Source of the DNA: a virus
Taxonomy: Duplodnaviria; Caudoviricetes
Direction: 5' to 3' (one strand)
DNA: 26,913 bases
IMG/VR virus record: IMGVR_UViG_3300043270_000042
Span: 1 to 26,913 of that record
Part shown: positions 8,087 through 9,157 of the stretch, piece by piece
How the letters are laid out: each line of letters starts with the position of its first letter
How positions within the stretch are numbered: the first letter of the stretch is position 1
Position numbers and translations under genes: made by a program
The notes under the pieces: generated by a model
What the model was told of the DNA's origin: nothing
The model's input: only the letters and a program-made list of their open reading frames with translations
Database searches by the model: none

Positions 8087-8745
8087 TTGCGCTGAGCATC
8101 CGCCAGCCTTGGGCGAGTTTGATCCTGAACGCCGGCAAGGACATTGAGAACCGCGACTGGCCGACCAAGTACCGTGGGCGCATCCTGATTCACGCGGCCA
8201 AGGGTTGTACGCGCATGGAGTTCGATGACGCCATCCAGTTTGCAGAGGGCTGCATTCAACGGCCGATCACTGCCGACTTGGACACCATTCCGCGCGGCGG
8301 CATCGTGGGCAGCGTCGAGATCGTGGACTGTGTAGCCGACAGCCAATCGCCTTGGTTTGTGGGCCGCTACGGCTTCGTGCTGCGCGACCCAAAGCCGCTG
8401 CCGTTCACGCCGTGCAAAGGGCGGCTCGGGTTCTTTGACGTGCCTGCCGAGGCGCTTGCTACGGCGGTCGCCCACGCAGATCAGCTCGGCCTGCCTGTTG
8501 GGCGGCTCACGCGCGGACAGCGGCGCTACCTCGCAAAGTCCGAGTGCGTGTTTTGCGAGTACTCGCTGGCCAAGTCACGTTGCGGGTCGATCTACGGTCC
8601 AAGGTGCAGCGAGGAGCTGATGGCGCAACGCCGCGCCGAGTGCCTGAAAGCCTACAAGCCGCGCTCGCCTATCCCTGACAAGAGCCCGGCATGTACCGCG
8701 TCGGCATCGGATTCACCGCCGCCGGCCCGCAACGCCACGCCGTAA
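8083..8745 (+). CDS. ASCH domain protein with Cys-rich C-terminal extension
   Basis: [54 protein letters not shown]; extension CVFC...C...C. Confidence 0.9.
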
Positions 8746-9157
8746 TCACACCACCGCCGGCCGTCGTGCCCACCAGCGGCGCCGGCGGCGCGGCGTCGTC
8801 GAAGGGCACCAGGCTGATGGCGTTGGCCGTGGCAGTCACCGCGCCGCCCAGCGTGGCTGGGTTGCCAACGATCGTGATCACGCCGTTGGCATCGACGCTG
8901 CCCGACGCCACGTAGCGCGTCGCCGCAAAGCTGCACACGCCCGGCAGTTGCGCGCTGATGTCCGGTGCGCTGGCGGACTGCACCGTCTCCGAGATGGTGG
9001 TGCGGCAGCTCGACGCGGCAAGCATCAGCTCGCTCACCTTGCTGCGTACGGTGTAGTCCTGATACGCCGGCAGTGCAATGGCGGCCAGGATGCCGATGAT
9101 GGCCACGACGATCATCAGCTCGATGAGCGTGAAGCCGGCCTGCTTGATGCGGTTCAT
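8669..9157 (-). CDS. pilA: Type IVa major pilin (prepilin), 162 aa
   Basis: [44 protein letters not shown]-terminal D-region WRCG...YMPGSC; GGAG upstream; ATGA overlap with upstream gene. Confidence 0.95.

Follow-up and report, generated by a model that had tools for sequence, protein, structure and literature searches.

An uncultured freshwater phage whose late strand ends in a type IVa major pilin gene

The 26,913-bp record of an uncultured freshwater phage, analysed here in its entirety (the window), contains a single type IV pilin gene behind the genes for host lysis. The gene is located on the minus strand, a detail absent from the preliminary description of this locus, and its features are as follows:

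8669..9157 (minus): type IVa major prepilin (P-PilA), 162 aa; leader MNRIKQAG, cleavage between G8 and F9, Glu5, Cys51/75 and D-region Cys143/160
9167..9170 (minus): pilin ribosome binding site (RBS) GGAG, 9 nt before the ATG and within the 3′ end of the upstream ORF, u68

The pilin gene and the genome that carries it

The ORF running from 9157 to 8669 encodes an intact type IVa major prepilin of 162 aa, with a short, positively charged leader of 8 residues, a G/FTLIE cleavage site in which Glu occupies position 5 of the mature protein, and a hydrophobic α1 region. Its four Cys residues, at positions 51, 75, 143 and 160, are all invariant in 86/86 aligned homologues. Two Pfam families matched above their cut-offs, N_methyl (PF07963, E 4e-10) and Pilin (PF00114, E 1e-9; 39.8 bits, cut-off 22), as did TIGR02532. 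Solved major pilins were the best Foldseek matches (E 1.3e-8) of the AlphaFold (AF2) model (pLDDT 89.7), and likewise the top matches of a PDB sequence search, so that both sequence and fold resemble a major pilin rather than a FimU-like minor pilin. The ATG shares 4 nt (ATGA) with the TGA of the upstream ORF u68, and all parts of the complete pilin gene as first described (cleavage site, Glu5, four Cys residues, RBS and ATGA overlap) were found again in the sequence. Two further statements on its surroundings were equally borne out: there are no other pilus genes among the scanned ORFs around it, the pilin being the sole N_methyl match in both the window and a second record (G001), and both flanks are phage, with ASCH, methyltransferase and RecET genes on one side and Rz, tail tip and tape measure genes on the other. 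A search of 50,697 cultured phage records with the pilin gave no match at E 1e-5, and just one weak bacterial record came up at E<=1.

The closest bacterial pilins were 68–69% identical and are encoded in ordinary Burkholderiales pilA loci. Chromosomal pilA genes from Variovorax sp. YR216 (L054) and a MAG (L053) have the same four Cys residues, and fall with the phage pilin in one starred clade (99) of 18 rows, 11 of them bacterial pilins, in a quick tree of 75 chosen rows (47/81 bacterial, 22/~80 viral), which has many open forks and shows nearest kin but no donor. Unlike the phage gene, which lacks a proximal one, these chromosomal genes have a σ54 promoter, and their neighbours, as read by eye, encode phosphodiesterase, FHA, PP2C, glycosyltransferase-like and moaC-like functions. 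The presence of the nearest pilins in ordinary Burkholderiales pilA loci fits a captured subunit able to suit the host machinery, and the host is probably a betaproteobacterium. Searches with the tail-tip and terminase proteins pinpointed neither host nor receptor, and the 20–31% likeness of the tail-tip protein to those of cultured phages says nothing on pilus use.

A host pilA gene at a prophage boundary, or a chimeric join made during assembly, might give a similar picture, and the Logan contigs of run X1, which is possibly the source of the record, do break at 9109–9110, inside the conserved 5′ part of the pilin gene. However, on each X1 contig part of the gene is continuous with kilobases of phage sequence, and the two depths are equal: the 3′ part and early genes lie on one contig (depth 33.5), the 5′ part and lysis and tail genes on the other (depth 34.9). 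The u68–pilin junction was also present in an independent run from another study (X2), where a 383-bp contig covers 9108–9363 with 26 differences and no gaps (~90% DNA identity). Pilin alleles of 96% and 93% were found in a protein collection, differing by 6 and 11 changes, all of which lie in the variable domain (residues 64–156) and none in the leader or α1 helix; the 93% pilin and a u68 homologue are each encoded on a 1680-bp contig, probably one and the same. Furthermore, the host gene neighbours seen at the bacterial loci are lacking. Because phage contigs of equal depth, 93–96% alleles and a junction recurring at ~90% identity agree, the pilin is a genuine phage gene, and the artefact or host boundary that the preliminary description had allowed for is largely refuted and, in our estimate, extremely improbable. 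A separate match, L146 (94% over 16 aa), turned out to be a piece of a host pilA gene.

The second record shares 12 kb with the window at 99.98% identity and extends round to the start of the window. The join lies within a single gene, in a 27-bp tandem repeat (window 1–160) at which both assemblies break, and the N-terminal part of the gene product (from G001) resembles positions 15–190 of phrog_4433 and the C-terminal part (from the window) positions 240–309. The resulting closed circle of ~45.7–45.9 kb (~46 kb) contains terminase, portal, replication and cro-like genes, whereas the CheckV completeness of the two records (38% and 46%) implies a larger genome. Neither of the two records matched PF00589 (tyrosine integrase), PF00239 (resolvase), PF00717 (S24 repressor) or PF13614 (ParA), the gap between the cro-like gene and the first leftward gene measures only ~90 bp, and two weak HTH ORFs are located elsewhere in the genome. 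Judged by this gene content, the phage is probably a lytic, non-integrating siphophage; an unrecognised carrier state would also be compatible with the absence of lysogeny-module matches. The initial proposal had been framed around a lysogen, with expression compared between lysogen and induced cells and with lasting changes in motility or competence, and such lysogen-based readings fail for lack of any match of this kind in the closed genome. The short stretch separating the cro-like gene from the first leftward gene (L138, 1960–2062) contains repeated AGCCATCTGCTAG / CTAG boxes, which are likely operators, at the usual place of a cI gene.

Late-strand gene order and pilin expression

The minus strand carries, in order, genes for capsid, tail tube, tape measure, tail tip, fibre, a 139-aa transmembrane (TM) protein and a TIGR02594-like protein, followed by two small ORFs, Rz with an embedded Rz1-like gene, a 190-aa phrog_3108 protein, u68 and the pilin. 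The features from the TM protein to the facing early operon are:

11374..11793 (minus): 139-aa single-TM protein, holin-like by position only
10814..11350 (minus): TIGR02594-like protein, candidate second cell-wall enzyme (E 6.4e-10, under the curated cut-off; weak phrog_1259 match)
9929..10435 (minus): Rz-like i-spanin (phrog_312, E 2.5e-29; DUF2514)
9937..10215 (minus): embedded Rz1-like o-spanin lipoprotein (LLSGC lipobox, Pro-rich)
9360..9932 (minus): predicted lysozyme-fold muramidase or lytic transglycosylase (phrog_3108, unannotated), 190 aa, invariant Glu
9524..9538 (minus): σ54-like site inside the muramidase gene, 17.3 bits, 381 nt upstream of the pilin gene
9154..9360 (minus): u68 microprotein, 68 aa, N-terminal hydrophobic helix and C-x12-C
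8083..8745 (plus): ASCH-domain ORF that ends the convergent early operon, reading 77 nt antisense into the 3′ end of the pilin gene

The 190-aa protein is likely the endolysin, on the strength of its predicted fold. In VIA-align its model (pLDDT 95) aligned best to muramidases and lytic transglycosylases (muramidase 8b2e: Z 11.1, rmsd 2.6, 122 residues aligned), and lysozyme-superfamily chains made up most of the list; Foldseek returned nothing at E<=0.001 with the same model, and the muramidase alignment had no match in the PDB by sequence. Forty viral loci with phrog_3108, a family listed as of 'unknown function', were found, and it is likely an unannotated endolysin family. The embedded ORF at 9937..10215 was called an Rz1-like lipoprotein by its lipobox pattern, and since this lipoprotein is already present, u68 is unlikely to be the o-spanin. 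There was no family match for the 139-aa TM protein.

From Rz to the pilin the genes are spaced by -4, -1 and -4 nt, and no terminator or σ70 site was found in 8000–10600; both points favour a probable late expression of the pilin. There were no Rfam matches over 7000–12000, and the hairpin 3′ of the pilin stop codon was unremarkable (z +1.2). The original view of the pilin gene as the last, translationally coupled gene of a lysis operon holds for its terminal position on the late strand and for the ATGA overlap; its partner u68 is no recognised lysis gene, and both 'operon' and 'coupled' are terms drawn from gene spacing alone. The pilin is absent from all 40 loci (0/40) that encode the same muramidase, and the link between pilin and lysis genes is hence not a conserved arrangement; as judged by gene order, the terminal late position is lineage-specific.

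A σ54 motif was present within 250 nt of the ATG in 55/77 bacterial loci (80 were fetched, 77 of which had sufficient upstream sequence) and absent before the phage pilin gene, which is unremarkable since the motif is also missing from 48 of the 72 distinct viral pilin loci (present in 24/72). The σ54-like site at 9538, within the muramidase gene, had the best score on both strands of the ~46 kb (next 12.6), above the training 10th percentile of 15.6, and may allow for pilin expression separate from the late transcript. The pair of u68 and pilin may thus be a moron with a promoter of its own, expressed early or in a carrier state for classical superinfection exclusion, with their place behind the lysis genes being incidental. 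The strength of the site, and the absence of the strict motif from the muramidase homologues (0/40), favour such a moron. The TGTCA/GTGAC element, which we take to be the PilR box ('PilR UAS'), tells against it, being present in 48–49/56 bacterial promoters and missing over the 220 nt that precede the site, as does the finding that the motif core is only one synonymous base away from that of a pilin-less homologue (L013). Moreover, synonymous recoding of the muramidase gene produced a relaxed motif in 16% of trials and a strict motif in 2.7%. We consider the site to be probably a by-product of the coding sequence, late read-through to be the simpler reading of the sequence than an internal promoter, and the separately promoted moron to be rather unlikely.

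The pilin gene meets the early operon (RecE/RecT, methyltransferases and ASCH) head-on. The ASCH ORF has a Cys-containing C-terminal extension of ~90 aa, which is missing in 16/16 homologues, and it is this extension that overlaps the pilin gene; the 77-nt overlap suggests a recent join. A gene at such a convergence point, where accessory DNA collects, could be a neutral or decaying passenger, captured from a host or another phage, carried along where early and late genes meet and now functionless, and the absence of both a promoter directly upstream and of any pilin at the muramidase-sharing loci would fit this. However, the three alleles are full length and, with 6 and 11 changes, conserve the leader and α1 helix, the adjacency of u68 and pilin is kept at ~90% identity without indels, and codon use is phage-like (codon adaptation index 0.74, versus 0.75 for the capsid gene), making a functionless passenger quite unlikely. 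As a speculation, early transcripts from the ASCH side could damp pilin mRNA. The early operon (4463–7720) contains three DNA methyltransferase genes, and at the cytosine methyltransferase locus two long ORFs overlap on the same strand (6578–7720 and 6744–7694, plus); both have family matches, and both are also matched in L010.

The microprotein encoded upstream of the pilin

The start of u68 overlaps the stop codon of the muramidase gene (TGATG), in the same way as its own stop codon overlaps the start of the pilin gene. Family searches with u68 gave no match, the best Atlas score (0.84) being a lead only. A search of metagenome contigs with its homologue P0004 (84%) gave no relative, and 7/11 differences between the two are in the last 13 residues, making the tail the variable part of u68. 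The sequence GGCACACCATGC in the 3′ tail of u68 (9172–9183, minus) resembles a σ54 promoter two bases short, and may be what is left of a promoter taken up into the ORF.

Small same-strand ORFs with an N-terminal TM segment and a C-x(10-14)-C motif precede the pilin gene in 4/66 viral loci (u68 included), but in 0/75 bacterial pilA loci and 0/1688 background windows; as the filter was drawn up after seeing examples, the four viral loci are no independent count. In its sequence u68 resembles the microproteins before two other phage pilins (L162 and L154), which makes them candidate homologues only: BLASTP of u68 with the L162 protein, one chosen pair, gave 26% over 58 aa (E 6e-4), the post-TM scores among u68, L162 and L154 were matched by only 1–3/340 decoys, and a leave-one-out profile built without u68 ranked it 4th of 771 frames (E 1.9). 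In the two other phages, of which L154/G002 is a circular phage with an integrase, a σ54 promoter is located between microprotein and pilin, whereas both genes overlap in the window; this similar microprotein before a σ54-promoted pilin is a further point in favour of a separately promoted moron. The upstream ORF of L012 was not supported as a relative in the post-TM decoy comparison, and u68 likewise failed to show homology when compared with the small divergent lipoprotein-like ORFs next to the L001–L003 pilins. We suggest that u68 may be an accessory of pilin function.

Possible function of the pilin and comparison with other phage pilins

Our preferred reading, which we regard as evenly balanced, is that the pilin is probably made late and likely alters the pili of the infected cell, so that superinfecting phages and progeny adsorb less. 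The gene would be transcribed by read-through of the late operon and its translation coupled via u68, after which the host prepilin peptidase would cleave and methylate the product. The mature pilin would then enter the inner-membrane pool and be built into the host pilus, or compete with it, changing the surface seen by pilus-binding phages. The gain would be as with T5 Llp or Zip, in that fewer virions would be wasted by binding to the dying cell or its remains. Re-coating of the pilus or protection of progeny is a reasonable reading of the locus, and a point against it is that late timing leaves little time before lysis. It predicts that the pilin acts late in the lytic cycle for progeny protection, and not in a lysogen, and if true would extend receptor masking of the Llp/Zip type to subunit replacement timed with lysis; the microprotein might then be a new pilin accessory.

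T5 Llp is reported to protect progeny from receptor-bearing debris (10.64898/2026.03.26.714494), and an anti-Kronos effect is described for Zip (10.1101/2024.03.05.583538). Both share with our proposal the masking of a receptor that spares progeny from the producer cell or its debris, but Llp plugs FhuA and Zip binds PilZ, and these unrelated proteins are not pilus subunits, unlike the pilin in the window. In Pseudomonas, PilA represses its own promoter via PilS (10.1101/323923). By analogy, the phage pilin may shut off host pilA via PilS feedback while itself escaping, having dropped the PilR/σ54 promoter, although silencing of host pilA by a promoter-free phage copy is speculation for the host considered here. 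In its fullest form, the proposal would be that a TM/two-Cys microprotein and a major pilin form a mobile module, run by PilR/σ54 in temperate G002, and that in the present lytic phage this module has escaped regulation by the host and been joined to the last of the lysis genes. As a dedicated part of lysis, the foreign pilin would flood the membrane late, re-coat the pilus and silence host pilA via PilS, and the microprotein would be a pilin accessory of a new type; we consider this combination unlikely.

Phage major pilins are already in print, and PilA-like genes are listed for Xylella fastidiosa prophages and four groups of non-temperate phages by Sztanko et al. (Cell Rep 2026, PMC12952977, section 17, Fig. 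S6 legend and Table S3). An adsorption block is proposed there for these P-PilA proteins, as opposed to being assayed as for P-FimU, and early action is proposed or assumed for the pilins of virulent phages, which would again suit a separately promoted moron. Like P-PilA, the pilin in the window is a full-length PilA-like protein and its gene the lone pilus gene among those of a tailed phage; it differs in being of Burkholderiales type with four Cys residues, in its place behind the lysis cassette and in its coupling to a microprotein. P-FimU of Pseudomonas F10-like prophages is incorporated into pili and blocks adsorption while the pili keep working (PMC12952977), and it is likewise a phage copy of a host pilus subunit in the late gene region. 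However, P-FimU is a minor pilin of the tip; its gene is expressed from the prophage, has a predicted promoter of its own and lies between tail tube and chaperone genes, whereas the window encodes a major pilin and neither record has a lysogeny-module match. Type IV pilins that a virus encodes and its host assembles are also described for the SNJ2 provirus of Natrinema (PMC12426801), which is archaeal and temperate, with two pilins in filaments of their own that serve as receptor for another virus.

Instead of changing functional pili, incompatible subunits could stall the host motor, or pilin-rich debris could soak up competing pilus phages after lysis, with the phage's own progeny spared. 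Strong late expression would load the membranes with pilin before lysis, and inhibition of assembly is raised for truncated P-PilA in PMC12952977. The pilin studied here is full length, however, with an unchanged assembly helix and Glu5, as in an assembly-competent subunit, and the P-FimU proteins tested in that study left pili working, so that jamming or a decoy appears quite improbable.

The novelty first attached to a phage pilin was overstated, given these published genes and the 238 viral stretches that matched in a pilin profile search (80 kept), which show that phage pilins are common and lower the surprise of a single gene. What is less usual is the late terminal position and the TM/two-Cys microprotein upstream. 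Literature searches showed no late or lysis-linked phage pilin among the papers listed, and the positions of the Xylella P-PilA genes (Fig. S6 of PMC12952977) may bear on this. We mapped 11 + 22 pilin loci, mostly by eye with some PHROG checks, and among these no other pilin was last behind Rz and endolysin genes on one strand. The nearest arrangement was that of L195 (lysozyme, small ORF, pilin), and the pilins of L154 and L009 face lysis genes. Mapped phage pilins were located in immunity regions, among packaging and head-tail genes, or beside integrase or att sites. A recurring immunity-region cassette was seen in lambdoid L001–L005 and L163, with an XRE-HTH gene followed by a pilin with σ54 promoter and terminator, beside a repressor-like gene, and several of these have a small divergent Cys-containing secreted protein between the XRE-HTH gene and the pilin. 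As labelled by eye, other pilins are found in a Zot-bearing filamentous-phage-like contig (L008, 5995–6389), between the terminase and portal genes in podophage-like contigs (L149, L152, L157), and, in T4-like contigs, behind a gene resembling that of a sliding clamp (L178, L186, L214).
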